Origin: Methanobacteriota archaeon
GTDB lineage: Archaea > Halobacteriota > Syntropharchaeia > JAUWIL01
Direction of reading: 5' to 3'
Assembly (NCBI GenBank): GCA_030605385.1
Contig: JAUWIL010000002.1
Span: forward strand, 1-37,983
Length of the DNA stretch: 37,983 nt
Under the pieces are notes generated by a model. The model saw nothing but the letters and a program-made list of their open reading frames with translations, was not told the origin of the DNA and did no database searches. A program made the position numbers and the translations under genes. The number at the start of each line of letters is the position of its first letter. The stretch's first letter is position 1. Shown in pieces: positions 8,872 to 34,912 of this stretch.

Positions 8872-8875
8872 TATT

Positions 8876-13863: not shown

Positions 13864-14234
13864 GATATATCGACACTCCGATTAGTTTGATGTTGTTTTG
13901 CTCAGGCTACAATCAGTTTGCAACATTTGTATGTAATGCAACGTTTGTTTGTACTTTATATGCAATGATATAAGGTCATGCTATTTAATTTAGTATTCAA
14001 CCAGTTTTTAATCCTGTATTTAATCAGTTTCCATAATATTTAGTCATAATACTTAATGGTAACGTATGCTTAATGGTCAGGTAGCCTGCATACCGCATAG
14101 TCAGAATATCACGTTATCGCGTAAAATCAGATAATGATTGGGCGTAAAAATCAGATAAGGGTGAATTTAGTGGAGTGGAGCAAGTTGTGCACCAATATCT
14201 TTGGAATTATATGAATTGGCTGCACCTTTGGCAG

Positions 14235-14714: not shown

Positions 14715-14892
14715 AACAATTAACGTATCAGGATTAAAATAACCTTTCTAATCGCTTCATTCATCAATTCTTTTCATTCATGTAAAGCTTGAGGTTAGAT
14801 TGAGGTTGCGGTGGAAATGTGGGTGCAGCACAGCCGTGTCTACCTTATATAACTCTGATAACCCCTCTTATGTAGGTGCTATTCTTATACTA

Positions 14893-15315: not shown

Positions 15316-15340
15316 TTTATCATCACTCACTTGCTTATGC

Positions 15341-15895: not shown

Positions 15896-16051
15896 TTAAT
15901 GCGAACCATTTAAATAACCTGCTCCATTTTAATTGACTTACTGAGTTATGGGTATGAACTTGGTGAGCATAAAGCTGATGGATATAAACATGACGAGTAT
16001 AGGTTTAGTGAGCATAAGCATGATGACCATAGGCTTGAGAGTGCAGGCATA

Positions 16052-16660: not shown

Positions 16661-16822
16661 TCTGCAATTACAAAATGTATATGAGAACCTGATGCGCAAT
16701 TGTAAAATAGGTATATTGGAATGCCTGCATATGAAAGTTATAACTGTAAGGTCATAAATGTAAACAATCGGGAAAGCTATTTCTGTTGCGATAATGTATG
16801 GTGATATAGTGGGGGAATAAGT

Positions 16823-19836: not shown

Positions 19837-20604
19837 TCATACCCTCATATTTTCAAGTATTTTTTTAACTGCCTCGACACTTTGATTATCGTCTGGCAGT
19901 TCAAGCAGAGATTTGCCGCTGAAGTCATATTCTCGGACTGTTTCATCTTCGGGTATCCATCCGAGAAAGTCTATAGAAACACCATCCATTGCCTGTTTTG
20001 CCTCTTTCTCGCTTCTGGCTTTGTTTACCACAGCTCCAATTCTACTGTAGTTCACTGCATTCCCCTCCTTTGCTACATGGAGTATTGTGGACATCGTGTT
20101 GACACCCTTTACAGAAGTATCTGATACTATCACAAGATCGTCAACGTCCATCATGACTCTCCTGTTTATCTGCTCTATGCCTGCCTCTCCATCTATCAGC
20201 GTAAGGTCAAAGCTCTTCGACAGAAGCTTTATAGCATCTTTGAGAAGGTCGTTTACCCGGCAGTAGCATCCCTCATCTTCTGGCCTCCCGATAGACAGTA
20301 CAGCTAGACCGGGGTACTCTGCCAGAGCATCCAGAATCTCGTAGTCGAGCATGGAGGATATCTCAAGTTTATCTCCGCCTTTACTCTCTTTGATGCTCTT
20401 GATTATTTTAAGCCGTATGTCGTTAATCGTCTTCTCGACCTTAACGCCTAGTGTCGGCACAAGACCGGAAGCCGGGTCGGCATCTATCACGAGGATTTTC
20501 ATATCGCCTCTGCTTGACAGCAGTTTGGTCATTATCGCCGTAAAGACGGTTTTCCCAACGCCACCTTTTCCGCATACTGCTATGGTCCTGCCTTTACCAC
20601 TCAT
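19837..20604 (-). CDS. CooC/AcsF-type (MinD/ParA-fold) metallocentre-maturation ATPase
   Basis: Deviant Walker A AVCGKGGVGKT, CxC motif in GRPEDEGCYCRVN, and DGEAGIEQINR. ATGA overlap with the upstream gene. Confidence 0.8.
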   Translation of the reverse strand: MSGKGRTIAVCGKGGVGKTVFTAIMTKLLSSRGDMKILVIDADPASGLVPTLGVKVEKTINDIRLKIIKSIKESKGGDKLEISSMLDYEILDALAEYPGLAVLSIGRPEDEGCYCRVNDLLKDAIKLLSKSFDLTLIDGEAGIEQINRRVMMDVDDLVIVSDTSVKGVNTMSTILHVAKEGNAVNYSRIGAVVNKARSEKEAKQAMDGVSIDFLGWIPEDETVREYDFSGKSLLELPDDNQSVEAVKKILENMRV

Positions 20605-21326
20605 TTTTCGCTCCTCAGCTTCTGCAGCCTTTCTCTAATCTTTCTCAGCTCCTGAACATCGTAACAGACATCGTTATATTCACAGGTATCACAGTCGAGA
20701 GACATCTCCTCCACCATCTTGTTCATCGCATCAAATATCCTTTGAACCCTGGTTGATATGTCATTAAGCTCTTTTACATCTTCTTTGCTTGATGTTACGA
20801 AAATGACCTCTGCACCATCGACATACTCCATCTCCCTGGATTTTTCTATCAGGTATCTGCCAAGAATCTTGAGTGAAAAGCCCTTTTCCAAAGCGTCTTT
20901 GCTGATTCTGCTCCATATCTGCTGGCGCTGCGGGATAATCCTGATCATGTATCCATGAAGATTTGTATTATACTGTGCGCTCCTTAACTCCCTGTATCTT
21001 TCATATTCATCCTCAAAACGACCCCTGAAGATTAAAATCTGAGCGAATGGTATGCTCTCACATTTACACTCCGTTAAGTCGGGGCCTATGATAGTTATTC
21101 TTCCATCTCTGACATCACCATTTTCTGTCCAAACAAAAAAGCACTTGGATGCATTTCCTGGATTGCCGAGTTCAACTCCGACATCGTCTTTCAATATTAT
21201 CTCTGAGGCACCTTTTTGCGGCCAATCCTCATGATGGAAATTTACTATCTTCCTTACTTTACCCTTATCATTCTTTTTCTGTATATATGCTTTAAGCTCT
21301 TTAATCTCTTTGTCAAACAGACCCAT
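20601..21326 (-). CDS. CdhC/ACS N-terminal-domain-only protein (acetyl-CoA synthase beta-subunit-like, lacks the A-cluster domain)
   Basis: VELGNPGNAS...DGRITIIGPDL...IWSRISKDALEKGFSLKILGRYLIEK...EVIFVTSSKEDVKEL...LDCDTCEYNDVC parallels my recollection of CdhC/AcsB (VELGGP...VTIIGPDL...WMRVSKD...FYTDKDEV...FYGCTLCQSFAPTNVC). The protein ends before the SCGCFE Ni site. Confidence 0.6.
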   Translation of the reverse strand: MGLFDKEIKELKAYIQKKNDKGKVRKIVNFHHEDWPQKGASEIILKDDVGVELGNPGNASKCFFVWTENGDVRDGRITIIGPDLTECKCESIPFAQILIFRGRFEDEYERYRELRSAQYNTNLHGYMIRIIPQRQQIWSRISKDALEKGFSLKILGRYLIEKSREMEYVDGAEVIFVTSSKEDVKELNDISTRVQRIFDAMNKMVEEMSLDCDTCEYNDVCYDVQELRKIRERLQKLRSEK

Positions 21327-21342
21327 GAAATTTCAACTTCGC

Positions 21343-22116
21343 CTAAGCTTTTTCTCCACCCAACAGTGCGGCTCCGATTGCTCCGGCAAACTGAGGGTCT
21401 TCAGGGAACTCTACAAAATCCCAACCGAGGTTTTTGCATATTAACTGGACCATGCAGTTAATTTTGCCCACCCCTCCGGTTATTGTGAAAGCTTCTCCAG
21501 TACCTATTCCCCTCGCCTGAGATGTGATAGTCTTTGCAACACCCTTGCAGACTCCAGCCATGATGTCAGCCACACTCTTACCTTCGTTCACATGGGTTAT
21601 GACTTCACTCTCTGCAAAAACGGCGCATTGCGAGCTGATATCCACGGGTTTCTTCGCTTCCCCGGCAGCTTTATCGACTCCACCGACATCCAGCTCAAGA
21701 GCTTTGGCAGCTATTTCGAGGAACCTGCCCGATCCTGCGGCACATTTATCATTTGTCGCAAAATCGATTATTTCTCCATCACCACCTAGGAGAATTGACC
21801 TTACACTCTGACCCCCAATGTTGATTATGAATCTGGCATCAGGAGTTAGGCTGCTGGCTGCCCTGGCAATGCACTGTGTTTCATCTTCCTTTTTGCTGGA
21901 CATGGGCACTCTATCCTTTCCCTGACCGGTGCTGACGCACGAGTCAATCTCATTTTGGGAGATGCCGGTATCAGAAAGCATTGAGTTAACCAATTCTCCA
22001 ATGTCCTTCTCCATTTCCCCTGTAGTTCCCGTTACCTTCTTTGATAATATCTCTCCATCCTTCATCAGAACAGCCTTTGAGAATATGCTGCCCACATCGC
22101 AACCCAAAGTAATCAT
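21343..22116 (-). CDS. BcrAD/BadFG-type ATPase (BzdP/Q, BcrA/D, HgdC-like)
   Basis: ITLGCDVGSIFSKAV phosphate-1 motif; cluster-bridging Cys contexts TNDKCAAGSGRFLE and SQCAVFAESEVI. ATG at 22116 after GAGGG is preferred over GTG at 22131. Confidence 0.85.
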   Translation of the reverse strand: MITLGCDVGSIFSKAVLMKDGEILSKKVTGTTGEMEKDIGELVNSMLSDTGISQNEIDSCVSTGQGKDRVPMSSKKEDETQCIARAASSLTPDARFIINIGGQSVRSILLGGDGEIIDFATNDKCAAGSGRFLEIAAKALELDVGGVDKAAGEAKKPVDISSQCAVFAESEVITHVNEGKSVADIMAGVCKGVAKTITSQARGIGTGEAFTITGGVGKINCMVQLICKNLGWDFVEFPEDPQFAGAIGAALLGGEKA

Positions 22117-22127
22117 TTCTAACCCTC

Positions 22128-22916
22128 TCACTTTTTCAATTCTTCCTCGGCAAATAGTGCCGCCCCTAGAGCACCAATAATCTGAGGGTCCACTGGCGGC
22201 GCTCTAACAGTGACTCCAAGCATTCTTTCCAGCTCGTTTTTGACTCCGACATTCTTTGCAACGCCCCCGGTCATTACAACCTCTTTTTCTATTCCGACCT
22301 GCCTTGCAAGAGCATTAACCCTCTCAGCCATTGCCATGTTCACCCCGGCGGCAATGTCAGCTTTATTTTTACCCGTCTGAAGGTAATGCAAAACCTCGGT
22401 TTCACTGTAGATGCTGCACCTGTTCGTAATTTTGATCGGGTTTCTGCTGCTTAATGATACGGGTCCAAGTTCGTCCAATTTCAGATCCAACACGTCGCAC
22501 ATCACCTCCAAAAATCTCCCTGTTCCGCCGGCACACTTGTCATTCATGATAAAATCAGCGAGTTCGCCCTTATCGTTAACTCTTATGACCTTACAATCCT
22601 GTCCGCCAACATCTATCACTGTTCTGACATCAGGTAGAACCCATTGAGCTCCCCTTCCATGGCAGGAAATCTCACTCACATTCATTTTTGAGAATCCTTC
22701 AGCTTGAATCTTATCTCTCCCATAGCCGGTGCTTACGCAGAAGTCTATGTCTTTGAATGTGAGTCCGTTCTCTGAAAAGACAGCTTCAGTCACCGCTTTT
22801 GCGGATTCCAGGGAGCTTGGTTTAACTCTTATACTCTTGTACGCCTTGATGGATCCACTCTCGACTATAACTGCCTGAGCGCTAAGTGAGCCGATATCGA
22901 TACCAGCTGTTAACAT
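22128..22916 (-). CDS. BcrAD/BadFG-type ATPase, second distinct paralog
   Basis: LTAGIDIGSLSAQAV; MNDKCAGGTGRFLE and NRCSIYSETEVL. The SD GGAGG lies upstream. Confidence 0.85.
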   Translation of the reverse strand: MLTAGIDIGSLSAQAVIVESGSIKAYKSIRVKPSSLESAKAVTEAVFSENGLTFKDIDFCVSTGYGRDKIQAEGFSKMNVSEISCHGRGAQWVLPDVRTVIDVGGQDCKVIRVNDKGELADFIMNDKCAGGTGRFLEVMCDVLDLKLDELGPVSLSSRNPIKITNRCSIYSETEVLHYLQTGKNKADIAAGVNMAMAERVNALARQVGIEKEVVMTGGVAKNVGVKNELERMLGVTVRAPPVDPQIIGALGAALFAEEELKK

Positions 22917-22960
22917 ATTCTTCCTCCATTTACAAAAGATCGGGATGAACCTATTTTCGA

Positions 22961-24319
22961 CTATTTATTCTCAACAACCGTCTTAACAAAGTTTTCTATT
23001 TCATCTTGTAGTGTAGTGACCGGAGTCATTCTCTTATCCCAGGAGTCTGCCTGGAGCCTGAGCATTGGAGTTCCGGTTCGTTTTCGTATTTCGTCTCTAA
23101 CTATCCTGAAAACACCCCATGTTTGCTTGCATGCAGGATGTCCGCAGAATATGCAGCAATCTGCACCAAGTTCATTTATTTCCCACACCAGGTCATCCAC
23201 CCATACCGAAAAGTCTGCTCCAACCTGCCGCGTCATCGGGTAGTTCCACGTACTTTCGGCTGCACCGTCAATCATCGTCTCCTTGTCCGAGGTATCCACA
23301 TGATTTGGGAAAAAGAATCCAAGTATGTCGTTGAGATATGTTATGCCGTTTTCCTCCATCCAGTTGAACAGTCCACCTATGTCAAAGTAATGACCGGTAT
23401 ATATCCATAGAGCTCTGGCTCTTTCCTCAGGTGCCGGATAGTCCCCCCTTCTTTTCCTCTCCTCTGCCACCTGTACCATCATTTTCACCATGTCAATACT
23501 TTCTTTCGTACCCCACATTGTGTATTTGGTGGCATACATAAAAAATGCAAAGACGTTGGGTACGGGACAGGGCACGACCTTCCTCAGATCGTTCAACTCG
23601 TAAAAGTACTCTGCAGCAGTGTTTGCATTCTTCATGACTTCTCTGAGCCGCCCTTCATCCAGCTCCTCACCTACAAAGCCTTCAAGGTCTCGAACAAAGT
23701 CTCTAAAGTTGTTCTTGTATGCTTCAAAGGACCTTTTTGTATTATCCGCAGGTTTCGCGGTAAAGAATGTAGGCACCTCAAGATACTCAGCCAGAAATTC
23801 ATATAATTTGGAATTATTGTCACATGACCCGGGTGAAGCCGAGATTATCGCATCAGGTGTTACATCCATACCGCTTAACAGAGATCCTGCCAGACCAACA
23901 CCTGATGTGCAGAGCGAATCGGGAAGTCCCATTTCACGCGTGATATCAATATATCTTTCTATCTGACCATCCAACACCATAACTCCTAATGTATTCATAA
24001 TCTCCTCGCACATAGGTACTGCGCCTTCAAATGCATAGAGGAGCTCAGGGGGAAAATTAAACGGGTGCAGTATGATTTTTTTACCATCGTCGTGTGCACT
24101 CTCGATCATTGACAGATAGCCACTTAGCGCCCTTGAAATGCGTACAGTTGCATCTGCAGACCTCGGCGCCAGAAGCGCCCCCAAAATGCTTTTCAACTGA
24201 GGAGGTAAAATTCTGATTATCCCGTCCACCTCTTCCTGGCTCAAGCCGTATTGAATGTTTGCCGCCATTCCAAATATCGGAGCCGATCTCTCTAGTATGC
24301 CTTTATTAACAACCACCAT
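22961..24319 (-). CDS. BzdO/BcrB-like subunit of the benzoyl-CoA reductase / 2-hydroxyacyl-CoA dehydratase family (duplicate copy)
   Basis: 452 aa, collinear with the 24476..25864 product (for example ILHPFNFPPELLYAFEGAVPM, GSCDNNSKL, CIFCGHPACKQTWGVFRIVRDEIRK). The two 3' ends share a 42-nt identical stretch. Confidence 0.8.
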   Translation of the reverse strand: MVVVNKGILERSAPIFGMAANIQYGLSQEEVDGIIRILPPQLKSILGALLAPRSADATVRISRALSGYLSMIESAHDDGKKIILHPFNFPPELLYAFEGAVPMCEEIMNTLGVMVLDGQIERYIDITREMGLPDSLCTSGVGLAGSLLSGMDVTPDAIISASPGSCDNNSKLYEFLAEYLEVPTFFTAKPADNTKRSFEAYKNNFRDFVRDLEGFVGEELDEGRLREVMKNANTAAEYFYELNDLRKVVPCPVPNVFAFFMYATKYTMWGTKESIDMVKMMVQVAEERKRRGDYPAPEERARALWIYTGHYFDIGGLFNWMEENGITYLNDILGFFFPNHVDTSDKETMIDGAAESTWNYPMTRQVGADFSVWVDDLVWEINELGADCCIFCGHPACKQTWGVFRIVRDEIRKRTGTPMLRLQADSWDKRMTPVTTLQDEIENFVKTVVENK

Positions 24320-24475
24320 CGCTTTTTACCTCATCTATATAAATCTCCCGGCTCTACAGGTGCACTTGCCGTTTATCATGAGTCTGCCCATTGTTAAAAC
24401 TGCCTGAGTACCTGAGTACCAGATGAGCCGACATCAATACCGCCTAGTAACTACCTTCACGCTCAGAGTACCAAA
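24320..24475 (-). pseudogene. fossil 5' fragment of a BcrAD/BadFG ATPase gene in the spacer between the two BzdO-like paralogs
   Basis: The minus strand reads GGCGGTATTGATGTCGGCTCATCTGGTACTCAG(GTACTCAG)GCAGTTTTAACAATGGGC... = GGIDVGSSGTQ(+8-nt duplication at 24404-24419)AVLTMGRLMINGK. Compare AGIDIGSLSAQAVIVESGSI at the start of the intact ATPase gene (22916). There is no start codon and the frame is broken by the duplication. Confidence 0.6.
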
Positions 24476-25864
24476 TCACGAAGAAGTTGCCCTCGGCTTC
24501 CTCGGCTTTTTACTCTCAACAACCGTCTTAACAAAGTTTTCTATTTCATCTTGTACTGTAGTAATTGGAGTCATCCTCTTATCCCAGGCATCTGCCTGAA
24601 GTCTAAGTGTTGGATTGCCGGTTTGCTTTCTTATCTCGTCTCTAACTATCCTGAATACGCCCCATGTTTGCTTGCATGCAGGGTGTCCGCAGAATATAGC
24701 ACAGTCTGCATGCAGTTCGTTTATTGCAGTTACTGAGTCATCCACCCATGCCGTAAAGTCTGCCCCAACCTGCCGTGTCATTGGATAGTTCCATACAGTT
24801 CCGGCTGCAGCATCGATCATCGACTCCTTATCAGAGGTATCCACAGGCATTGGGAAGAAGAATCCGAGTAGGTCATTGAGATATGTTATGCCGTGTTCTT
24901 CCATCCAGTTGAACAGCCCATATATGTCATAGTAATAGCCAGTATATATCCATAGAGTCCTTGCCCTCTCTTCTGGTGCCGGATAGTATCCATTCTGTCT
25001 TCTCTTCTCTGATACCTCCACCATCCGTCTCATTGCATCGATGCCCCCATCCGTACCCCACAGTGTATATCTGGTACCATACGTAAGAAATGAGAACGCA
25101 TTGGGCACTGGACAGGGTATGGCGCTCCTCAGCTCATTCAGTTCGTAGAAGTACTCTGTAGCCATATTTGACTTCTTCATGACGTCTCTGAGCCGTTCTT
25201 CATCCAGCTCCTCACCTACAAAGTCTTCAAGATTCGAAACAAACTCCCTGAAGTTGTTCTTGTATGCTTCAAAGGATCGTTCTGTATTATCTGCAGGTTT
25301 CTCAACATGGAATATGGGCACCTCCATGTATTCGGCTGCAAATTCATGCAGCTTTGCATTGTTGTCACAAGACCCGGGTGCAGCCGAGATTATTGCATCA
25401 GGCGGCACATCCAGACCGCTCAGCAGAGACCCTATCAGACCAATACCGGATGTGCAGAGCGAATCGGGAAGCCCTATTTCACGCGTGATATCAATATATC
25501 TTTCTATCTGCCCATCCAATGCCATAACCCCCATGGTGTTTAGAAGCTCTGTGGCCAATGGTACCGCTCCCTCAAATGAATAGATAAGGTCTGGTGGAAA
25601 ATTGAATGGGTGCAGTATAACTTTCTTACCATCATCATGCGCTGCCTTAACCGTAGATATATACTTCTGCAGCCCTTTTATAACACATATAAATGCGTCT
25701 CTTGTTCTCGGCACCATGAGTGCGCCTAAACTGCTTTTCATCTGAGGCGGTAAAATTCTGATCAGTCCATCTACCTCTTCCTGGCTCATGCCGTATTTGA
25801 TGCGCGGCCCCATGCCAAATATTGGATCCAGCCTTTTTATTATACCATCTCTAACAACTACCAT
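24476..25864 (-). CDS. BzdO/BcrB-like subunit of the benzoyl-CoA reductase / 2-hydroxyacyl-CoA dehydratase family
   Basis: 462 aa, paralog of 22961..24319, with an extra basic tail KKPRKPRATSS. Confidence 0.8.
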   Translation of the reverse strand: MVVVRDGIIKRLDPIFGMGPRIKYGMSQEEVDGLIRILPPQMKSSLGALMVPRTRDAFICVIKGLQKYISTVKAAHDDGKKVILHPFNFPPDLIYSFEGAVPLATELLNTMGVMALDGQIERYIDITREIGLPDSLCTSGIGLIGSLLSGLDVPPDAIISAAPGSCDNNAKLHEFAAEYMEVPIFHVEKPADNTERSFEAYKNNFREFVSNLEDFVGEELDEERLRDVMKKSNMATEYFYELNELRSAIPCPVPNAFSFLTYGTRYTLWGTDGGIDAMRRMVEVSEKRRQNGYYPAPEERARTLWIYTGYYYDIYGLFNWMEEHGITYLNDLLGFFFPMPVDTSDKESMIDAAAGTVWNYPMTRQVGADFTAWVDDSVTAINELHADCAIFCGHPACKQTWGVFRIVRDEIRKQTGNPTLRLQADAWDKRMTPITTVQDEIENFVKTVVESKKPRKPRATSS

Positions 25865-25870
25865 CAGGGC

Positions 25871-27055
25871 TCACCTCCCGGTTCTCTCCAGAAATGCCTG
25901 AATTCGTGTTCGCAGCCTGCCTATGTCAGACCTGGCACCATACTCCAACTCCAGCAGCAGTACCGGGATGCCAGCCTTCTCAAGATCAATTCTCAGCTTT
26001 GTATTGTCAACTCCGTGAAGATCGCAGAATTTGATGTGCTCAAGAATAACGCCGTCAACGTTCGCTCTCTCAGCTGCACTTTTTATGAAATCTATCCTTT
26101 TTGAGTATTCCCCGAACATCCTTGGACAGGTAAGCCTGTTCAAGTACTTCCTTGCCAATGCATCCATGGGATCCTGTTTTACACTTGCATTATAATCCTC
26201 CTTATAGACCCTGTTCAAGTAATCACCAGCCAATGCATCCGCATCATCTGGAGCATCCCAGAAGGCTCTTGCCCCGAAGCACAGGGAATCTGTGACTATC
26301 AGACCGCCAACGTCTTCCATTGCTCTTACGAGCTCGACATCATCCAATGCGCTGCCGCCAAGCATTAGCCGCGCCCTGTAGCCAGAGATTTTGTTATTCT
26401 CCCTCTCTTTGAGCAAGTCAGATAGGAATCCAAGGTATTTGTTGGGAGGGATGGAGGACTCAGCTATTATCACGCTCATAGCCTCTGCCCCGGTCAGGGC
26501 TGGCTTATCCCGCTCTCGCAGTTCATATAACTTTCGGAGTTTTCCCCCAACCTTATTGTAGACACCAATAGATTCTCTCAGCCTGTCATCGGTTATGCTC
26601 ACGCCAAAGTGGCTTTCTATCTTTTCTTTCAAGATATTCAGATCGTCTATGAAAAAGCTGATAAAGTTCTCTGTGACGATGTGCGGAACCATCAGGGGGT
26701 GGGCAAGGGGTGGTTTCTTGATGTATCTCCAGTTCTCAAACATTCTTCTCATATGGTCACACCCATTGGGCATGACTATTCCGTCCAGGAAGTCGTATTC
26801 ACTGCCCAGTCCAAGCTCAAGGCATGAGCGGCAGAAACTGCAGTTGAACCTTGAAAGGTATGCATCAGCCGTCGTTGTCTCGCCGCTGCCCAATGCTCTT
26901 ACCCTGAATGGCAGCAGGCCAGCAGCATAAAGCAGTTCCTTGGGAACCGAGGCGCACGAGTAACCTATAACCTTTTTGCCCTGCTCTTTCCATTCCTTTA
27001 CATACTTATTCTCAATACTTCCGGATATTTCAATCAGATCGTCCATTGATGACAT
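25871..27055 (-). CDS. BzdN/BcrC-like subunit of the benzoyl-CoA reductase / 2-hydroxyacyl-CoA dehydratase family
   Basis: 394 aa. KVIGYSCASVPKELLYAAGLLPFRV is the typical N-terminus of HgdA/BcrC/BadD-type subunits. The SD GGTGGAG lies upstream. Confidence 0.8.
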   Translation of the reverse strand: MSSMDDLIEISGSIENKYVKEWKEQGKKVIGYSCASVPKELLYAAGLLPFRVRALGSGETTTADAYLSRFNCSFCRSCLELGLGSEYDFLDGIVMPNGCDHMRRMFENWRYIKKPPLAHPLMVPHIVTENFISFFIDDLNILKEKIESHFGVSITDDRLRESIGVYNKVGGKLRKLYELRERDKPALTGAEAMSVIIAESSIPPNKYLGFLSDLLKERENNKISGYRARLMLGGSALDDVELVRAMEDVGGLIVTDSLCFGARAFWDAPDDADALAGDYLNRVYKEDYNASVKQDPMDALARKYLNRLTCPRMFGEYSKRIDFIKSAAERANVDGVILEHIKFCDLHGVDNTKLRIDLEKAGIPVLLLELEYGARSDIGRLRTRIQAFLERTGR

Positions 27056-27071
27056 GCGCTACCATCTCCAC

Positions 27072-28541
27072 CTATTTCTCCTTCGAAATCTTTACCACCG
27101 AATCTATGAACCCTGAAACCATAGGGAGAACTAAGTTGGCTGTAAAATCAGGATGCTGTCTAAGCACTATCTGAATTTTCTCTGAGAAGGAGTTTACAAG
27201 GCTGTCAACCTTTGATTGCTCGTTCTTTGACATCTCTGACATCGAATCCATAAACCATGAAACGAAGGGCATGGATAGCTTGACCGTAAATTCTGCAAAC
27301 TCTGGATTACCCTCAAGAGCCTTTACCACCTGTCCCGAGAAGCTGTCTGCTGCCTTGTTAAGCTCCTTGACGTCAACGGCAGAGATAGTATCCGATAAGA
27401 GCTTTGACAGGATTTCAGGATCCTTCTCGTGCAATCTGTTTGTGAACTGAACAAGCGAGTTTATTAGTTTACCAACCTCTCCCGTATCAATACCTCCAGC
27501 AGCATCAGAAATGGCGTCCCGGATCTCGGGTGGAAGTTCGGCAAATTTCGATGTCGTCGCCTCCATGCCTCTGACAGCCGAGTTTATGATTGGAGGTGCG
27601 ATCGAAATCGCAGACATAATGAAGGCAGGATTTCTCCACGCCGCATCATTTACCGAGTTTATTATTGCCTCTGAATCATCTGAAAGGGCCACGACTGCTT
27701 TACCCAGAGCTTCATGGTCTATGGCAGAAAGGGTTTCTGACAGAAATTCCGAGAGAACTCCCTGGAACCTTGGTGCCGCATCTCCCAGGACGATGTTTCC
27801 TTCATGCAGCAGGTTCATAACATGTGCGGTGGAATTTATCAGCCCCCCAACCTCTTTGGTATCCGTCTCCTCCATTATGCTGAATAACGCACTTGCAAGT
27901 ACCTCTGGCGGAAGTGTATTGAACCGGGATATGGTCACCTCCGAGCTTCGCACAGCCACGTTTATAAGTGAAGGGAGTGCTGCAGCGATGTTTGCAACAA
28001 TGGCGAGATTCGACCATACTGCATCGTTTATTGATTCCACGGTGGCAACCATATCATCCGAAGAGCCTTCAACGGCTTCACGGAGAATCCCAAAATCAAT
28101 TGCCGAGATAACATCAGATATGAGTTTTGATGCATGCGGCTGGATGAACGTTGGATAGTCCTGGTGCACCGTGTTTATAAGCCTAGCGTATGTGTTTACT
28201 GCTTCACCCATCTCTTTTCCATCAATGTCTTTTACAACTCCCGAAATCAGCCCATCAACAGTCTTAGGTGTGAAGGTTTGAAGTGCTTGACCAAACTCTT
28301 CTAAAGCTGATGCAGTTGCATTTATACATAGTGGGACAGCTCCGATGGCTGTAGCCGTGAAGTCGAGATCTTCCCAGATAAGAGTTTTAATCAGCTGTGA
28401 CGCCGATTTTGGGTCCATGTAGTTTATCGCTATATCCAGCATGCTTCTAATCATTGGTGTCCTTATCAGCTCTCGTGCGATTCTGCTCGTCAGGTCGACC
28501 ACGCCTTTTTCCATTTCTGTGGTTTTTTCAGGTTCACCCAT
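27072..28541 (-). CDS. 489-aa all-alpha protein with about 4 internal repeats of roughly 115-120 aa, unknown function
   Basis: There is a strong SD (GGAGGGGTGA). Repeats are visible by eye, for example SAIDFGILREAVEGSSDDMVATVESINDAVWSNLAIVANIAAALPSLINVAVRSSEVTISRFNTLPPEV versus SAIDHEALGKAVVALSDDSEAIINSVNDAAWRNPAFIMSAISIAPPIINSAVRGMEATTSKFAELPPEI. Confidence 0.6.
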   Translation of the reverse strand: MGEPEKTTEMEKGVVDLTSRIARELIRTPMIRSMLDIAINYMDPKSASQLIKTLIWEDLDFTATAIGAVPLCINATASALEEFGQALQTFTPKTVDGLISGVVKDIDGKEMGEAVNTYARLINTVHQDYPTFIQPHASKLISDVISAIDFGILREAVEGSSDDMVATVESINDAVWSNLAIVANIAAALPSLINVAVRSSEVTISRFNTLPPEVLASALFSIMEETDTKEVGGLINSTAHVMNLLHEGNIVLGDAAPRFQGVLSEFLSETLSAIDHEALGKAVVALSDDSEAIINSVNDAAWRNPAFIMSAISIAPPIINSAVRGMEATTSKFAELPPEIRDAISDAAGGIDTGEVGKLINSLVQFTNRLHEKDPEILSKLLSDTISAVDVKELNKAADSFSGQVVKALEGNPEFAEFTVKLSMPFVSWFMDSMSEMSKNEQSKVDSLVNSFSEKIQIVLRQHPDFTANLVLPMVSGFIDSVVKISKEK

Positions 28542-28555
28542 CTTTCACCCCTCCT

Positions 28556-29824
28556 TTACAAAGTCTCGCAGCCGTAGAACCATCTTGCCGTCTCCATCTG
28601 ACATAACTGCTTCCCCCCCATCCATAATTGAATCATCTTGACATCTCTCCAGTGTTTTTCAACATCCCAGTCTCTATCACATCCGTAGGTTCCCATCAAG
28701 CTCGCCGCATTGTTGGTGACCTCAATACATTTATCTGCTACGTGCATTTTTACTGCCCTTGATTTTGCCACTCCCTCATGCGACCACTTATCCCAATACA
28801 GCTCGGGGCGGTCAAGTGTTCTTGCGGATTGATAGGTTGCGATTCTGCAGATTTCTATGTCTTTGGCTATATCTGACAGAACGGCTGCAACTGCGGTATT
28901 CTCTTTTAAAGGTTTCCCGCGAAATATCTTGTTGGAGCAGTATTCTTTAAGTATTTCATAGGTGTTCATCATCGCACCCACGCAAAAAGCAGCGCTGGAC
29001 ATAGATCCCCAGTTAATCACTTCCCTGAAGTACTTTGCATCGTCTCCGGCCCCCCACGCTCTATACTTCTTGGGGACTCTAACGTTCTCGAACCATATGT
29101 CCGAGTTTTTGTCCGCAGCCATTCCTGCTTTCTTGTAGGGCTCGCCCTGTGTAACTCCCTCAGTATCTGCCGGGACAAAGATGAATGCAAAATCATCTTC
29201 ATCACTTGACCCCTGTTTTGTCGTGCATATCACTCCAAAAAGGTCAGCGACACCGCCTGTGTTCGTCGGCCAGAGCTTATGCCCGTTGATGACCCACTCA
29301 TCACCGTCAAGCTCGGCAGTGGTCGTGATTGTTTTACCGCCCATGTTACCCATATTTTCTATGTCTGATCCTCCTTGCGGCTCGGTCATGGCGTTGGCAG
29401 CAAAGCGCGGCTCATCGGCATCGCAGAACATAGGGGCAAATTCAGCACACAATTCTTCATTTATGTGGGGTTTCAAAGCAATCATTATGAGCGGCCAGAA
29501 CGTGACGGCAGAAGCAACGGCAATCCCGGTGTCAGCCCTTCCAACTTCCTCGAACACCCTGGCCATGAGGGTGCCGACATGGTCGGACTGCCCCAGCCCC
29601 CAGCCCCCCACCTCTTTCGGCCATACTGCTTTCTGGAGACCTATGTCGACATAAAGTTTTTTCATGGCGGGCTCGACCCAGTTGTGGTCTTTCCAGTCCT
29701 CATTAAACTTTCTTCTGTACGGAATGACGTCGTTCTCTGCCCACTCTCTTATCATCCCTCCTATGTATTTCTCGAGTGGAGACAGAAATTCTTTGGGGCG
29801 TGTGAAATCATCGATTGTTGTCAT
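28556..29824 (-). CDS. acyl-CoA dehydrogenase-fold protein (more canonical member of a pair)
   Basis: AMTEPQGGSD and NGHKLWPTNTGG contexts. The C-terminus RDVKMIQLWMGGK replaces the usual RDxxxxxIYEGT. ATG at 29824 after AGGTGG is preferred over GTG at 29836. Confidence 0.8.
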   Translation of the reverse strand: MTTIDDFTRPKEFLSPLEKYIGGMIREWAENDVIPYRRKFNEDWKDHNWVEPAMKKLYVDIGLQKAVWPKEVGGWGLGQSDHVGTLMARVFEEVGRADTGIAVASAVTFWPLIMIALKPHINEELCAEFAPMFCDADEPRFAANAMTEPQGGSDIENMGNMGGKTITTTAELDGDEWVINGHKLWPTNTGGVADLFGVICTTKQGSSDEDDFAFIFVPADTEGVTQGEPYKKAGMAADKNSDIWFENVRVPKKYRAWGAGDDAKYFREVINWGSMSSAAFCVGAMMNTYEILKEYCSNKIFRGKPLKENTAVAAVLSDIAKDIEICRIATYQSARTLDRPELYWDKWSHEGVAKSRAVKMHVADKCIEVTNNAASLMGTYGCDRDWDVEKHWRDVKMIQLWMGGKQLCQMETARWFYGCETL

Positions 29825-29836
29825 TTTATTTACCAC

Positions 29837-31084
29837 CTACAATGTTTTACAGTCATAATACCACCTGGCTATATCCATCATACCAGGCACTTTGCCGGTG
29901 CATACCTCTATTGTTTTAACATCTCTCCAGTGTTTTTCAACATCTCCCTCCGTTGCATAGCCTTGAGATGCCATTAGCTCCATCGCCTTTCCAATAGCAC
30001 TAACGGCAGAGCTGGTAACATGCAGTGCGACCGCTCTGGCAGTTGTAAACATCTTATCTGACCATGCTTCTCCATAAACGTCAGGTTTAGCGAGCATTCT
30101 GGCCACATTCCATGTCAGTATTCTTGATACTGCAACATGGTTGGCCACTTCTGCCAGAACAGCAGCATCAACACTATTCTCCTTCAGGGGTTTGCCGCTT
30201 ATTGTTCTGGTGTTGCCCCACTCCTTGACAATTTCATAAACATCCATCATCGACCCTATGCAAACAGCACTGGCGCATAAGCCGTGCCATGAAAGCACCT
30301 CTTTGAAACATTCAGCGCCGCCCCTTTGGAGTGCGGCATACTTTCTGGGGACTCTGACATTTTCAAACCACACATCTGCGTTTCTGTCTGACACAAGTCC
30401 GGTCTTCTTATAGGGCTCCTCCATCCTGATGCCTTCAGAATCGGCCGGGACGAGTACGTATACAATATCATCCCTCTCCAGCCCCTTTGCGGCACAAAAA
30501 ACACCGAACAGATTTGCTGCGCCACCTGATGACAGGGGACGCAGTTTCCGACCGCTGATAGTTACCGAATCACCATCGTTTTTAGCTGTGGCTTTGATAA
30601 CTCTCCCATATATGCTGCCGGCGTTTATACCATCAACATCACCATACTCTGGCAGTATAGGAGACCCGATGCGCACATCTTTGGTATTGCAGAACATCGG
30701 TGCAAGTTCAGTACACGCATCCTCGTTTATATTTGGCTCCATTGCGATTGGAGCAAGCAGACTGAAAGTTCCGGAGAATATAAAGCCAATTCCAGGGTCG
30801 GCTCTTCCAACCTCCTCGAGTGCCCTGACAATGGTGGTTGATACATATGGCGAATTAAGTCCGGCACCGCCGTATTTTTCCGGCCACATTAACTTCTGCA
30901 GACCGATATCTACGAATAGTTTTCTTATGGCTGGACCGATCAACTCATTATTATGGTCTTCATCGAACTCCTGTCTGTTTGGGATAACCTCTTTTTCAGC
31001 CCACTCTCTTATGCTGCTGGCAAGAATCTCATCATCTTCGCTCATCCACTCTTTTGGATAAGGAAACATATCTGTGGTTTCCAT
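29837..31084 (-). CDS. acyl-CoA dehydrogenase-fold protein (degenerate member of a pair)
   Basis: Collinear with the neighbouring paralog, but its motifs are degenerate (PILPEYGDVD, SGRKLRPLSSGG, RDVKTIEVCTGK). ATG at 31084 after AGGGG is preferred over TTG at 31093. Confidence 0.75.
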   Translation of the reverse strand: METTDMFPYPKEWMSEDDEILASSIREWAEKEVIPNRQEFDEDHNNELIGPAIRKLFVDIGLQKLMWPEKYGGAGLNSPYVSTTIVRALEEVGRADPGIGFIFSGTFSLLAPIAMEPNINEDACTELAPMFCNTKDVRIGSPILPEYGDVDGINAGSIYGRVIKATAKNDGDSVTISGRKLRPLSSGGAANLFGVFCAAKGLERDDIVYVLVPADSEGIRMEEPYKKTGLVSDRNADVWFENVRVPRKYAALQRGGAECFKEVLSWHGLCASAVCIGSMMDVYEIVKEWGNTRTISGKPLKENSVDAAVLAEVANHVAVSRILTWNVARMLAKPDVYGEAWSDKMFTTARAVALHVTSSAVSAIGKAMELMASQGYATEGDVEKHWRDVKTIEVCTGKVPGMMDIARWYYDCKTL

Positions 31085-31107
31085 TTTCGTCAACCCCTTT
31101 TTGATTT

Positions 31108-31188
31108 GTTTGTGAAATCGAAGATTTCACAACCGTATTGAAGCAGAGCTTCAATACATGTTTGAAAAACGCAGTTTTTCAAACATGC
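31108..31188. repeat. hairpin array, family 1, inverted orientation, 3 hairpins
   Basis: GTTTGTGAAATC-gaa-GATTTCACAACC, GTATTGAAGC-aga-GCTTCAATAC, GTTTGAAAAAC-gca-GTTTTTCAAAC, followed by ATGC. It starts about 24 nt upstream of the ACAD-like start codon at 31084. Confidence 0.9.
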
Positions 31189-31504
31189 ATCTCCAATGAT
31201 ATCTAATGTTTTGAGGGTGCTCAAGCCCCTATGATGCCATCCAGAAGGTCATATGACTTGCAGAAGTGGCGTCATTAATTTCAGGTATGTTTGGATTAAC
31301 ATTTTTATCTATTATAATCTTAACTGTTCTAATTGCCTGCCCATACAGAGTCATTCGAAAGGCTTGCATGCAGCGGATTTTGAGACCTAATGACGGCAGT
31401 AGCGCCATTAATCAATTGATTGTGCCGGATGCCGGAAAAGCGCTATTTGTAAAAATCCCGCGTTTAGCTGCACATTGTATTACCTATCAGGTTACCCACC
31501 AAGA

Positions 31505-32944
31505 CTATCGAGGATTATTTTCGTCTGTTTTTTCAAATATCTGCCTCGCCAGACTCGGCATATCAGGTCTGAGCATCTTATCCACGGCATCCAGCGAGTC
31601 CCCGTATATGTGCATGTTGGCACTCAGCAGGGTTACGCGAACCTTGTTGAATCCGGTGCATGATGCCACATACTCTGCCAGTCGTGCAAATCCGTACTGG
31701 TTGGCGTGCGTCGCACCATATGCATCGTTGCTGCGCATGAACAATGTGATGCCCAGAGTCTCTTTATCTATGGCCTGCATGACATATGCCCTGAGGCATG
31801 CAGGATCGGAACTTGTCAGATCCCAGGGCCGCGATATGTTGACGGCTGCGCGGCGCACCCATTTATTACTTTTCAGGAGTTGTATTGCATGATGAAGCTG
31901 GTCGACGGGTTGTCTGCCAAAGTGCATTTTATCGTTACGGTCCCACCGTGCCCGTGAGGCATATGTGTACACCTCATCCTCGGTTAGTGTTATATCTCCC
32001 TCTTTTGCAGGTTCGTCACCTATCTTCCCGATTATATATCTCATGGCATACTCTTCACCGTAGACTCTTGTGAACGGTGCCTGGTCATCCAGCATATTCT
32101 CTGTCGGGTTGCTTATGTCTACCATCAGGCGGTGCGCATACTTTGCCATACCCTGCTTGGCGAACACTTCACCCCACTGGGTTTTGTCGGTGAAGCCGCT
32201 ACTGTCTATGTACTCAAGTGTCTGGTGCCATCCGAACGGTATATTTTCCGACTCTATCAGTGCTGCGTGGGGTGTGGGCGGCGCAGGCTGAGTCTCATTT
32301 ATTTCCGCCACGTTTTTTTCATCACGTTTGTAGTAGTGGGCATTGGCAGCCATGATGGCAAGCGTTCCCTTATTCATATCCGTTTCGGTAATTATCCTCT
32401 GCTGAACTTCCGCGAGACCGATGAGGTTGATGTTGAGATAGTTGTAAACATCAAGGCTGCGGTAGAAACCTGTGACGTGCACCCCTGGCATTATTTCGCT
32501 CGGGCTGTCTTCAGGTTCTCCATCACCCTTGCTTATTGCCTGCACAAATATTTCCATCAGGGAAGGGGGCGTCTTGCTGAGTATGTCCCAGGGGCGGGCT
32601 ATGCTGTATGAGAAGCGCCTTGTATGGGGATATTTCTTTATCAGCTGGCTGCCCACTCTGGTCTGGTCTATGGGCTTGAGCATCCGGTCTTCGTAGCTCT
32701 CGGTTGTATGGTCGTCGTTGGTAATGACCCAGGCTTCATTTGGCATTTCATCATAGAGCGCAACCGGAGGTGCGTTATCAGGTATCATCGGTCCTGCATC
32801 TGGGTTGTTTACCACAAGCAAGAGGTTTGGTAAGAACATTGTATCACCCCTTTCCGAGGGTCGGTCAGTTCCGTATCTATATACCTCCCGATTTGCGAGG
32901 TTGTATGCGTGTGCTATATCCTTTGCGAACAGTAAAGCTGCCAT
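31505..32944 (-). CDS. tandem-fused thymidylate-synthase-like protein (two TS-fold halves, only the C-terminal half keeps the nucleophile Cys)
   Basis: C-half: VRRAAVNISRPWDLTSSDPACLRAYVMQ...LFMRSNDAYGATHANQYGFARLAEYVA...ANMHIYGDS. N-half: TRRFSYSIARPWDILSKTPPSLMEIFVQ...FYRSLDVYNYLNINLIGLAEV...ANAHYYKRD. These match the TS pattern RR..W.P, PC, RS.D, N and H.Y by eye. Confidence 0.6.
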   Translation of the reverse strand: MAALLFAKDIAHAYNLANREVYRYGTDRPSERGDTMFLPNLLLVVNNPDAGPMIPDNAPPVALYDEMPNEAWVITNDDHTTESYEDRMLKPIDQTRVGSQLIKKYPHTRRFSYSIARPWDILSKTPPSLMEIFVQAISKGDGEPEDSPSEIMPGVHVTGFYRSLDVYNYLNINLIGLAEVQQRIITETDMNKGTLAIMAANAHYYKRDEKNVAEINETQPAPPTPHAALIESENIPFGWHQTLEYIDSSGFTDKTQWGEVFAKQGMAKYAHRLMVDISNPTENMLDDQAPFTRVYGEEYAMRYIIGKIGDEPAKEGDITLTEDEVYTYASRARWDRNDKMHFGRQPVDQLHHAIQLLKSNKWVRRAAVNISRPWDLTSSDPACLRAYVMQAIDKETLGITLFMRSNDAYGATHANQYGFARLAEYVASCTGFNKVRVTLLSANMHIYGDSLDAVDKMLRPDMPSLARQIFEKTDENNPR

Positions 32945-33447: not shown

Positions 33448-34912
33448 ATGACACTAATAACAGGTGAAGAATATCGAGAAAGTTTAAGAAAAAGGAAGTC
33501 TCTCAAGATCCATCTGCACGGCGAAGAGATTAAAAATCCCGTGGACCATCCAATTATTAAAGCATCGATTAATTCAGTGGCCCTTACCTATGAATTGGCT
33601 GAAAACCCAGGATACCGGGATTTAATTACAACCACGTCATCGTTAAGCGGGAAAACAATCAATCGATTTTGCCATCTCCATCAAAGTACAGAGGATCTCC
33701 AGAACAAGGTCAGAATGCTTTAGATTATTGGGGCAGAACTGTGGAACCTGTTTCCAGCGCTGTGTGGGAATGGATGCGATTAACGCCGTTTTTTTAACCA
33801 CCTATGAAATTGATAAGAAATATGACACCAGCTATCACCAGCGTTTCACAGAATACGTTAAAATGGTGGAAGAAAAAGACTGGGTTATTGACGGTTGCAT
33901 GACTGACCCCAAAGGCGATCGGAGCAAGCATCCGCACCAGCAGAAGGATCCAGATGTTTTCTTCCACGTAGTGGAAAGAAAAGAAGACGGAGTGGTTGTT
34001 AGGGGTGCCAAAGCCCATCAGACAGGAGCAATCAACTCTCATGAGCACCTGATTATGCCCACTCTGGCAATGCGGAACGAGGAGAAGGGTTTTACCATTT
34101 GCTGTGCAATTCCGGTAGACGATGACGGAATTACATATTATTGCGGAAGGCAATCCTGTGATTTACGCCGGCTGGATCAGAGTGAAGAGGGAAATATCGA
34201 CTGCGGCAATCAATTTGGGGTACATGAATGTTTGGTAGTCTTTGATGATGTTTTTGTGCCAAACGAACAGATCTTCATGAATGGAGAAAGTGAGTTTTGC
34301 GGACGTCTGGTCGAATCCTTTGCAGCATACCATCGTCAGAGTTACGGTGGGTGTAAAGCTGGGGTTGGCGACGTCATGGTCGGAGCGGCTGCAGCGATTG
34401 CAGAATATAATGGAGTTCAAAATGCCTCACACATCAGGGATAAAATTACGGAAATGGCTCATTTGAATGAAACCATCTATGCTTGTGGTATGGCTTGCTC
34501 CGCGTGTGGGAAAAAAACGGAGGCAGGAAATTATCTCGTGGATATCCTATTGGCGAATGTGTGCAAACAGAATGTAACCAGATTTCCATTTGAAATCGCC
34601 CGACTTTTACAGGATATTGCAGGCGGGTTGTTCGTCACATGCCCAAGTGCAAGAGAACTAAGGAATCCCGAGACCAGAAAAATTATTGAGAAATATCTGG
34701 TCGGAGCAGAAGGGGTTGACACAATAAACCGAATAAAGATGATGCGTTTGATTGAAAACTCGGTCCTGGGTCGGGGAGCAGTCGGATATTTGGCGGAATC
34801 AATGCATGGTGCCGGCTCTCCCCAGGCTCAAAGAATTATGATCAATCGTTTAGCCAACCTGGAAGAGAAGAAAAAAATGGCTAAATCGTTGGCTCGAATC
34901 AAGGAGGAGTAA
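33448..34912 (+). pseudogene. abfD: 4-hydroxybutyryl-CoA dehydratase / vinylacetyl-CoA delta-isomerase, split by one +1 frameshift at 33718-33724
   Basis: ORFs 33403..33723 and 33728..34912 together are collinear with my recollection of Clostridium aminobutyricum AbfD (...HLHQSTEDLQNKVRML | RLLGQNCGTCFQRCVGMDAINAV...AAYHRQSYGGCKAGVGD...ESMHGAGSPQAQRIMI). The start ATG at 33448 follows AGGGGGT. Skipping T33721 restores one 487-codon frame. It could instead be an assembly error or a programmed shift. Confidence 0.75.

Follow-up and report, generated by a model that had tools for sequence, protein, structure and literature searches.

The window analyzed here is a whole metagenomic contig of 37,983 bp (JAUWIL010000002.1), and its central element is a cassette of ten minus-strand genes, all read in one direction, that occupies positions 19837-31093 in the table of open reading frames (ORFs). 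The cassette encodes N, O, P and Q subunits related to those of ATP-driven Fe-S enzymes, together with a truncated acetyl-CoA synthase (ACS)-like protein, a CooC-like ATPase, two acyl-CoA dehydrogenase (ACAD)-like proteins and a large repeat protein (Table 1). Enzymes of this kind, also called 'archerases', catalyze reactions that rank among the most strongly reducing known in living organisms. To our knowledge three functional types have been studied, namely the aryl-CoA reductases (which include the benzoyl-CoA reductases, BCR), the 2-hydroxyacyl-CoA dehydratases (HAD) and the double-cubane cluster proteins (DCCP), and we know of no report of an ACS fragment, a CooC-type metallochaperone or ACADs devoid of a catalytic base in association with this family.

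The proteins of the window were scanned with Pfam and NCBIfam, and the domain calls of a first-pass annotation of this DNA (ACAD, HGD-D, BcrAD_BadFG, CdhC and P-loop ATPase) were all confirmed by Pfam. Computed from the coordinates, the intergenic distances in gene order are 0, 14, 16, 6, 156, 44, -4, 16 and -4 nt, in line with the small gaps and 4-nt overlaps between co-directional genes described there. The eleven genes that had been counted are ten genes and one fossil, and all ten ORFs were found in place except that the first gene begins nine nucleotides earlier, at a TTG codon, the start given previously being an in-frame ATG three codons in. The longest spacer, between O1 and O2, is itself a gene fossil, as had been proposed: about 60 nt can be aligned to the start of the P gene (22858-22916) at roughly 80% identity, and one frame reads GGIDVGSSGTQVL, the ASKHA phosphate-1 motif, disrupted by an 8-nt tandem duplication. 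Since this remnant of the start of P stands between the two O genes, O2 arose by tandem duplication of a unit composed of O and the 5' end of P. A horizontal-transfer artefact or a chimeric contig was considered as the origin of the arrangement and rejected, as the GC content does not change between the cluster and its flanking regions and no part of the cassette is broken.

Table 1. Genes and gene remnant of the cassette, in gene order, with their positions in the window.
Feature	Position	Strand	Size and family evidence
ACAD-like protein 1 (ACAD1)	29837-31093	-	418 aa from TTG; 415 aa from ATG at 31084
ACAD-like protein 2 (ACAD2)	28556-29836	-	426 aa; Pfam ACAD N, M and C domains
All-helical repeat protein	27072-28541	-	489 aa; no family match
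N subunit, BzdN-like	25871-27055	-	394 aa; HGD-D 4e-85
O1 subunit, putative catalytic	24476-25864	-	462 aa; HGD-D 2e-48
Fossil of the P-gene 5' end	~24393-24451	-	inside the 156-nt O1-O2 spacer
O2 subunit, recent O1 paralogue	22961-24319	-	452 aa; HGD-D 2e-52
P, BcrAD/BadFG-type ATPase	22128-22916	-	262 aa; PF01869 2e-58
Q, second BcrAD/BadFG-type ATPase	21343-22131	-	262 aa; PF01869 8e-42; 4-nt overlap with the end of P
Truncated ACS-like protein	20601-21326	-	241 aa; PF03598 (CdhC) 1e-19
CooC-like P-loop ATPase	19837-20604	-	255 aa; CbiA/MinD-type; 4-nt overlap with the end of the ACS-like gene

Two palindromes with 3-nt loops lie upstream of the first gene, at 31110-31132 (10-nt arms, 100%) and 31154-31190 (17-nt arms, 94%), followed by an AT-rich TATA-like stretch near 31300-31320; these palindromes may serve the operon as operators or as leader hairpins. 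The promoter and terminator scan stayed at chance level with a sigma-70 consensus, which is unsuited to an archaeon, and neither Rfam families nor tRNAs were found in the window.

The HGD-D and BcrAD/BadFG domains score above the Pfam gathering thresholds, which places the cassette in the BCR/HAD/DCCP superfamily; the cut-off of a curated NCBIfam equivalog is reached by none of its subunits. The N subunit matches HGD-D (PF06050) with 287 bits against a cut-off of 28, and its best match in the PDB is BzdN (8s02_B; 5e-46 with phmmer and 5e-71 with the family profile), followed by HadC, DCCP and MbdN. Identity amounts to 34% with BzdN, 32% with HadC and 26% with DCCP. Six cysteines of N (Cys34, 72, 99, 259, 310 and 344) do not vary among 26 homologues and align one-to-one with BzdN Cys36, 73, 100, 263, 293 and 327 as well as with the cluster cysteines of DCCP. 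In BzdN and DCCP these six residues ligate an [8Fe-9S] double cubane (PMC11971306). The label 'BzdN-like' given earlier to this protein thus stands on its best structural match and on the shared cluster cysteines, and N is by its sequence predicted to relay electrons, its six-Cys signature being that of a double-cubane [8Fe-9S] cluster. Its scores with the curated models are low: the top NCBIfam match is the double-cubane anaerobic reductase NF040772 (181 bits, cut-off 350), and the equivalogs for BzdN (TIGR03190; 162 bits, cut-off 453.8) and HadC (153 bits, cut-off 700) are not reached either.

The two O proteins, 73% identical to each other, match HGD-D with 166 (O1) and 179 bits (O2) against the same cut-off of 28. 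Cys137, Cys166 and Cys397 of O1 are invariant, the first two aligning with BzdO Cys95 and Cys128, and the invariant Glu106 falls on HadB Glu55, the conserved position of the catalytic Glu. O is therefore a putative catalytic subunit, and its three cysteines may hold a [4Fe-4S] cluster with one iron left open. The active-site set of BzdO comprises Cys95, Cys128, Cys380, Glu65, His131 and, at the thioester, Tyr97. Within the alignment to BzdO, which spans residues 81-295 only, His131 is replaced by the invariant Asn169 of O1 and Tyr97 by Ser139. With the O family profile the best solved relative is HadB (1e-18), then DCCP (7e-17), BzdO (2e-12, partial) and MbdO (8e-9), and identity to both BzdO and HadB is about 20-24%. 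None of the curated models is reached: for bzdO (TIGR03191, cut-off 448.6) O2 scores 21 bits and O1 gives no match, for DCCP (NF040772, cut-off 350) the values are 44 (O1) and 52 bits (O2), and for HadB 37 bits contrast with a cut-off of 750. The designation 'BzdO/BcrB-like' was consequently abandoned, given that HadB and DCCP are nearer than BzdO and that His131 and Tyr97 are replaced. Judged by the equivalog scores, with N and O far below all cut-offs, the catalytic subunits stand outside the clades of known substrate, as the first-pass annotation had supposed.

P and Q match PF01869 with 199 and 144 bits, respectively (cut-off 31.5), and are 34% identical to each other. Two cysteines are invariant in each (Cys128 and Cys167 of P, Cys130 and Cys169 of Q; 54 and 58 homologues); a ligand role, suggested by their conservation, would have the two cysteines of each ATPase subunit bridge a [4Fe-4S] cluster. 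P exceeds the cut-off of the domain model CoA_E_activ (244 bits, cut-off 125) and remains below that of bzdQ (221 bits, cut-off 380).

These features bear on two alternatives. The cassette might encode a 2-hydroxyacyl-CoA dehydratase or some other eliminase of the ketyl-radical kind; its heterodimeric activator would then be built in, and the ACADs would process the resulting enoyl-CoA. All three catalytic-type proteins carry HGD-D, among solved structures HadB is nearest to O, with the Glu55 position and three cysteines kept, and the ATPases lie above the cut-off of the 'acyl-CoA dehydratase activase' domain. A dehydratase is also reportedly paired with an ACAD in the hadAIBC-acdB-etfBA cluster of amino-acid-fermenting clostridia. 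We nevertheless consider this reading unlikely, though deserving of real weight, in view of the two different ATPase genes, the low HadB and HadC scores given above, the lack of genes for a CoA-transferase, a 2-hydroxyacid dehydrogenase and an electron-transferring flavoprotein (ETF) in the cassette or conserved nearby, and the six-Cys double-cubane signature of N against a single [4Fe-4S] cluster in HadC (PMC11971306). The single-gene activator and one-cluster beta subunit that characterize HadBC/HgdAB are not what the cassette encodes. That the cassette encodes a DCCP-like reductase whose substrate is a small molecule without CoA, the CoA-related neighbors being incidental, appears very improbable. 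Such an enzyme would agree with NF040772 as the top NCBIfam model of N, with DCCP as the second-best solved relative of O, and with the fact that DCCP itself is of unknown function (PMC7317905). The N score is, however, half of the 350-bit cut-off, N/O and P/Q are heteromeric as opposed to the homodimers formed by DCCP and by its reductase, and O is short of one sub-cluster, as in CoA-ester enzymes (PMC11971306); moreover, the genes that recur around the cassette include ACADs, AMP-dependent ligases and MaoC hydratases as well as a fragment of the ACS CoA domain.

The two last genes form the most unusual part of the locus. With the family profile, the ACS-like protein aligns to residues ~330-509 of Moorella thermoacetica ACS, that is, to the middle (A2) domain, and its Cys212 and Cys215 fall on ACS Cys506 and Cys509, the first ligands of the A-cluster cubane. 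Cys212, Cys215 and Cys221 make up an invariant C-terminal CxxCx5C motif. The chain holds three conserved cysteines and stops about 30 residues past the equivalents of Cys506 and Cys509, short of a complete A-cluster domain; the Cys-Gly-Cys motif that we take to be the nickel site of the A-cluster is absent along with the fourth cubane Cys. Scores with the curated ACS/CdhC models are 61-70 bits (cut-offs 356-809). The stand-alone form is a family of its own size class, of about 230-280 aa, for which 95 clusters were retrieved at E<=1e-30 when 1.84 billion sequences, as 50%-identity representatives, were searched. The CooC-like protein has CooC1 of Carboxydothermus (3kje, 1e-18) as its top PDB match, followed by MinD (9e-11). 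It carries the deviant Walker A motif GKGGVGKT, and its GCYC segment (113-115) aligns with the Cys112-x-Cys114 metal site of CooC1, both cysteines being invariant in 36 homologues. By its P-loop, its CxC motif and its closest relative, the last gene would encode a metallochaperone ATPase of the CooC/AcsF type. The description of this pair as a CdhC fragment and a CooC ATPase therefore holds, given the PF03598 match, the alignment with Cys506/Cys509 and the CooC1 match.

At the other end of the cassette, ACAD1 and ACAD2 share 46% identity, and ACAD1 matches all three ACAD Pfam domains, if weakly. The absence of the catalytic Glu from both, noted earlier, was verified at the YEG and isovaleryl-CoA dehydrogenase (IVD) positions. 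In ACAD1 the Glu of YEG is replaced by Thr (L, V or T in homologues) and the TEPxxGSD motif is degenerate; in ACAD2 it aligns with Met406 (M or L in 29 of 31 homologues); and at the IVD-type position both proteins have Gly or His. ACAD2 is very strongly conserved and retains the flavin/substrate motif TEPQGGSD, with the generic ACAD 3pfd as its top PDB match (9e-33). For both, the top NCBIfam match is cyclohexane-1-carbonyl-CoA dehydrogenase, far below the cut-off. ACAD1 is the degenerate paralogue and probably the non-catalytic partner of an ACAD heteromer. The 489-aa protein was correctly recognized as a separate repeat protein: it matches no Pfam or NCBIfam family and contains an internal repeat of about 112 aa (43% identity, E 4e-25). 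A word-based homologue search for it returned two relatives only.

The distribution of the cassette was explored by scanning the GTDB species genomes with the N alignment. More than 570 stretches were matched and the best 80 loci (41-51% identity), all of them in metagenome-assembled genomes (MAGs), were examined by searching their ORFs with the ten window proteins. The bacterial loci belong to Geothermincolia, Ca. Solincola, Anoxymicrobiaceae and other Actinomycetota, and to Desulfobacterales, Dehalococcoidia, Syntrophomonadaceae and Myxococcales, the phyla with the cassette including Actinomycetota, Desulfobacterota, Chloroflexota and Bacillota; archaeal loci occur in Archaeoglobus, Hadarchaeota and Asgard MAGs (Jordarchaeia, Freyarchaeota). 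The cassette is thus not peculiar to this archaeon but widespread in bacterial MAGs, and the proteins of the window are about 41-53% identical to any relative. Two layouts recur. The full one reads ACAD1-ACAD2-(small repeat proteins)-repeat protein-N-O-P-Q-ACS-like-CooC-like, with one to three copies of O per locus, and the short one N-O-P-Q-ACS-like-CooC-like. Among the 47 genome loci with at least 7 kb after N, O is present in 45, both ATPases in 38, the ACS-like gene in 32 and the CooC-like gene in 30. The ACAD pair was found in 27 and the repeat protein in 29 of the 55 loci with at least 6 kb before N; homologues of the repeat protein stand directly upstream of N in about half of the loci, often with one or two shorter paralogues. 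The accessory genes proposed in the first-pass annotation are therefore co-conserved with N-O-P-Q across phyla and in both domains, with a distinction within the set: the CdhC/CooC pair accompanies about two thirds of the related loci, whereas the ACAD pair and the repeat protein constitute an optional module present in about half.

The reverse search, in which metagenomes were queried with the ACS-like protein, yielded 134 loci, 53 of them with upstream room. P/Q immediately precede the ACS-like gene in 41 of these 53, usually with N and O further upstream, and a few loci are rearranged or have one gene in between; a CooC-like gene comes next after the ACS-like gene in most loci with downstream room. 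N-O-P-Q is missing in only two of the metagenome loci that hold the ACS-like gene. The pair thus depends on the core and the core is not always accompanied by the pair, which is the pattern expected of an accessory module. That the accessory genes are chance neighbors was considered and rejected, being contradicted by their co-conservation with the core.

Beyond the cassette no neighbor occurs in more than 13 of the 80 genome loci. The most frequent are a polyferredoxin (13), an AMP-dependent ligase (10) and a short-chain dehydrogenase/reductase (9), and a TetR regulator, a PocR histidine kinase and a metallophosphatase were found in six loci each; MaoC hydratases also recur around the cassette, and in the closest relatives polyferredoxin genes lie directly upstream of it. 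No clue to the substrate could be deduced from this census of flanking genes in the 80 loci. From the nearby polyferredoxin, AMP-dependent ligase and TetR genes we infer that a ferredoxin-level donor and a CoA-ester substrate are favored. In the window itself a 2x[4Fe-4S] ferredoxin ORF of 68 aa, with the motifs CVACEVCIDECP and CDECGTCVDACP, is located at 555-761 on the minus strand, where it adjoins the gene for methenyl-tetrahydromethanopterin (H4MPT) cyclohydrolase (Mch), 19 kb from the cluster; it is a possible electron donor that is not linked to the cluster. The earlier statement that no ferredoxin, ETF, hydratase or ring-hydrolase gene is present consequently applies to the cluster and, as far as the ferredoxin is concerned, not to the window. 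No ETF, hydratase or hydrolase gene was found within the cluster or adjoining it, and genes for the dienoyl-CoA hydratase, dehydrogenase and Had/Oah ring hydrolases of the aromatic pathway and for BzdV-type proteins were not found in the window.

This context weighs on the possibility that the cassette encodes a genuine class I (Bzd-type) benzoyl- or aryl-CoA reductase, in which the ACADs might move dienoyl-CoA toward cyclohexanecarboxyl-CoA. In its favor are the N-O-P-Q order, the subunit sizes, BzdN as the best relative of N, the six double-cubane cysteines, and the ACAD match to cyclohexane-1-carbonyl-CoA dehydrogenase, distant as it is. The 34% identity between N and BzdN also exceeds the 24-26% shared by accepted BCR types (PMC11971306), and annotation pipelines label the relatives 'benzoyl-CoA reductase subunit C' or 'bzd-type N subunit'. 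On the other hand, O barely matches BzdO, behind HadB and DCCP and with Asn for His131 and Ser for Tyr97, the ACADs have no catalytic base, and the dienoyl-CoA hydratase, Had/Oah and BzdV-type genes expected of an aromatic pathway, absent from the window, are not conserved beside the cassette in the 80 genome loci either. The bzd operon reportedly carries ferredoxin and beta-oxidation-type genes with no CdhC or CooC, and the thn operon likewise encodes a ferredoxin and beta-oxidation-type enzymes and neither CdhC nor CooC. Taken together, aryl-CoA reduction is an improbable function for the cassette, with a small but genuine chance of being correct.

A further alternative makes use of the ferredoxins found beside many copies. 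Electrons derived from acyl-CoA and held on the ACAD flavin could be lifted by P/Q, N and O, at the expense of ATP, to the level of ferredoxin; if so, strict anaerobes could do with soluble proteins what reverse electron transport otherwise does at the membrane. Most of the hosts oxidize fatty acids or alkanes or are Wood-Ljungdahl anaerobes, for which this thermodynamic problem arises; the cassette forms a self-contained unit flanked by unrelated genes, and ACAD2 is highly conserved with its flavin motif. However, the ACADs have no catalytic base, the pair is missing from half of the loci, no precedent is known, and the open-iron site and catalytic Glu of O argue for chemistry at O instead of plain electron relay, so that such an 'uphill' module seems to be the most remote of the explanations considered.

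Some individual loci deserve description. The closest relatives of the repeat and CooC-like proteins of the window were found in a metagenome contig (L147; Ga0307432_1000014, 1-16702) with a cassette that has no ACADs. Two genes with Fer4 domains come before this cassette, and after it come genes for a FUR-family regulator and for an ABC transporter of the SBP_bac_5 (Opp/Dpp/Nik) type; these neighbors are an anecdotal hint of a linked metal supply. A complete nine-gene cassette is present in an Archaeoglobus sp. MAG (L058, 6302-15450; NZ_JACDNT010000022.1), flanked at one end by NFACT, RsmB and PIN genes and at the other by radical-SAM genes and a DDE transposase. In the window it lies between the Nnr and ThyA genes. 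Because unrelated housekeeping genes flank it in both cases, the cassette is self-contained, which suggests a unit spread by horizontal transfer. Four Desulfobacterales/Thermodesulfobacteriota MAGs (L044, L059, L063 and L071) have a second, remoter N/O pair (N ~210-230 bits, O ~110-120 bits) and a single ACAD2-like gene (~240-260 bits) a few kb from the main N-O-P-Q, so that two related systems seem to coexist in these lineages.

The recurrence of the same operon, with its ACS-derived helpers, in many anaerobes of both domains makes a real enzyme system probable. On balance, and with moderate confidence, we regard this system as a separate subfamily of the BCR/HAD/DCCP ATP-driven Fe-S radical enzymes, with a Bzd-like build and a metallocluster accessory module. 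The coupling to ATP, the path of the electron, the CoA-ester substrate and the accessory roles described below are what we infer from the cluster signatures, architecture and co-conservation observed. By analogy with BzdNOPQ, a P/Q heterodimer with a bridging [4Fe-4S] cluster would take an electron from a ferredoxin-level donor, and ATP hydrolysis by P/Q would drive it to a very low potential. The electron would then pass through the [8Fe-9S] double cubane of N and reach O at its three-Cys [4Fe-4S] cluster, where the open iron and the invariant Glu106 might reduce, or otherwise radical-activate, a CoA thioester. The one to three O paralogues are probably alternative catalytic subunits, serving as substrate-specific partners on one N-P-Q engine. 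For the ACS-like and CooC-like proteins, ATP-dependent insertion, carriage or repair of a metal or FeS center, or else electron entry, would be the most likely task, and the ACAD heteromer with the helical repeat proteins forms an optional module at the upstream end, which probably acts on the same acyl-CoA, either ahead of the reductase or following it.

A stronger version of the accessory role holds that the CooC-like protein and the truncated ACS build, carry or repair a non-standard metal center of the reductase; a nickel- or heterometal-containing FeS site could be meant, or else a system for ATP-dependent cluster delivery. This proposal is decidedly doubtful. If true, it would describe a BCR-type radical enzyme dependent on metallocluster biology of the ACS/carbon monoxide dehydrogenase (CODH) style, with a common CoA thioester of Wood-Ljungdahl-type anaerobes as its substrate, and hence a new combination of cofactor and enzyme and not just a new substrate specificity.

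Several observations weigh against a separate CoA-ester enzyme with metallocluster helpers. The evidence for all members of the family is sequence-based. O is not nearer to the reductase BzdO than to the dehydratase HadB, so that sequence does not choose between reductase and dehydratase chemistry, and the low identity among accepted BCR types means that distance alone leaves aryl-CoA reduction possible. As no known catalytic base is present in the ACADs, their chemistry is not assignable. About one third of the N-O-P-Q loci have no nearby ACS-like/CooC-like pair, and the pair is thus either not obligatory or encoded elsewhere. DCCP is said to assemble its clusters in Escherichia coli with no dedicated maturase. 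BzdNO does the same (PMC11971306), and both cases weaken the idea of maturation. Structure prediction with AlphaFold2 (AF2) gave unusable models both for the ACS-like protein (single sequence, pLDDT 35) and for the repeat protein (three-sequence alignment; all-alpha, pLDDT 39). Finally, the accessory set had been described as not known from any characterized BCR/HAD operon, and no BCR/HAD-type operon with CdhC and CooC was found described in the literature covered, most subscription journals being outside that coverage.

With respect to the host, the window encodes Mch, TiaS, an archaeal-type thymidylate synthase and a fragment of the archaeosine tRNA-guanine transglycosylase (TGT). Mch is 63-66% identical to its best relatives in Ca. 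Syntropharchaeia, Ca. Methanospirareceae (ANME-1), Halobacteriota, Alkanophagales and Methanosarcinales, and the host is, by these sequences, predicted to be an H4MPT-using Halobacteriota archaeon of an unsampled lineage near Syntropharchaeia/ANME-1. No methanogenesis genes were found in the window; 'methanogen-type archaeon', the term used before, is plausible and too specific at once, as Mch, TiaS and the archaeal ThyA place the host in Halobacteriota near Syntropharchaeia/ANME-1. Other genes of the window merit mention. An ORF of the HpaB/4-hydroxybutyryl-CoA-dehydratase family at 33728-34912 (plus strand) matches the HpaB_N profile only from position 90; its start probably lies upstream, or the gene is cut short or frameshifted. 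It is a candidate CoA-ester radical enzyme near the cluster and is not conserved with the cassette. The ThyA-like gene at 31505-32944 (minus strand, 479 aa) is covered by ThyA models over residues ~229-475 and has an N-terminal extension of ~228 aa with no family match. A flavoprotein resembling CoA-disulfide reductase (5847-7220, minus strand; 280 bits, cut-off 579) and a rubrerythrin (8368-8871, plus strand) are ordinary redox defense of an anaerobe, not linked to the cluster.

If the preferred reading is correct, the cassette would be a fourth and clearly separate branch of archerases. As a unit it is kept in several phyla of bacteria and several lineages of archaea of sediment, hot-spring and subsurface origin. 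Its substrate could reveal a new low-potential reaction of anaerobic carbon metabolism, and from the part played by the ACS fragment and its CooC partner one might learn of a further use for metal handling of the ACS/CooC type. Since pipelines name its subunits 'benzoyl-CoA reductase', claims of anaerobic aromatic degradation for Actinomycetota, Dehalococcoidia, Asgard and other MAGs may partly rest on a different enzyme.

Among known systems, the closest in build is the Bzd class I reductase (BzdNOPQ) of Aromatoleum sp. CIB (8S02; PMC11971306). Common to both are the N-O-P-Q order, N/O-type subunits of ~380-460 aa, two different ATPases of ~260 aa, the six double-cubane cysteines of N, and a three-Cys site with a conserved Glu in O. 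In contrast to BzdNOPQ, O, only about 20% identical to its counterpart, is nearer to HadB and DCCP, has other residues in place of His131 and Tyr97, and carries an extra N-terminal segment of ~60-80 aa; BzdM-type ferredoxin, BzdV and dch/had/oah neighbors of the bzd type are missing, and a truncated ACS, a CooC-like ATPase, Glu-less ACADs, repeat proteins and multiple O copies are added. Of the likeness to Azoarcus-type class I enzymes drawn in the first-pass annotation, the gene order, the subunit sizes and the two ATPases remain, but O, the equivalog scores and the operon context depart from it. HadBC/HadI (3O3M) has in common with the cassette the three cysteines and the Glu55 position of its catalytic subunit and an ATPase of the same activase family; HadI is a catalytic homodimer encoded by a single gene, whereas two distinct ATPase genes are present here, and CoA-transferase or ETF genes, as in Had systems, are not part of the cassette.

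DCCP and DCCP-R (6ENO, 7YYL) share with the cassette the six-Cys [8Fe-9S] motif seen in N and the ATP-driven injection of electrons. DCCP is a homodimer with a double cubane in each subunit (PMC7317905, PMC11971306), unlike the cassette, where only N keeps the double cubane, O would have a single open cluster, and N and O are separate genes; furthermore, DCCP has no known CoA substrate. The ACAD pair finds its counterpart in a different group of enzymes. In the heteromeric alpha2beta2 ACADs (FadE26-FadE27/ChsE type, PimC/PimD), one conserved and one degenerate adjacent paralogue are presumably combined in the same way. One subunit of the known heteromers keeps the catalytic Glu, and since neither ACAD of the cassette has it, ordinary alpha,beta-dehydrogenation is doubtful. 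With respect to CooC1/AcsF (3KJE) and ACS (1OAO), the position of a CooC-type ATPase beside an ACS-type protein mirrors that of a maturase and its target, although here the ACS-like protein has 241 aa and stands beside BCR-like genes rather than CODH/ACS genes.

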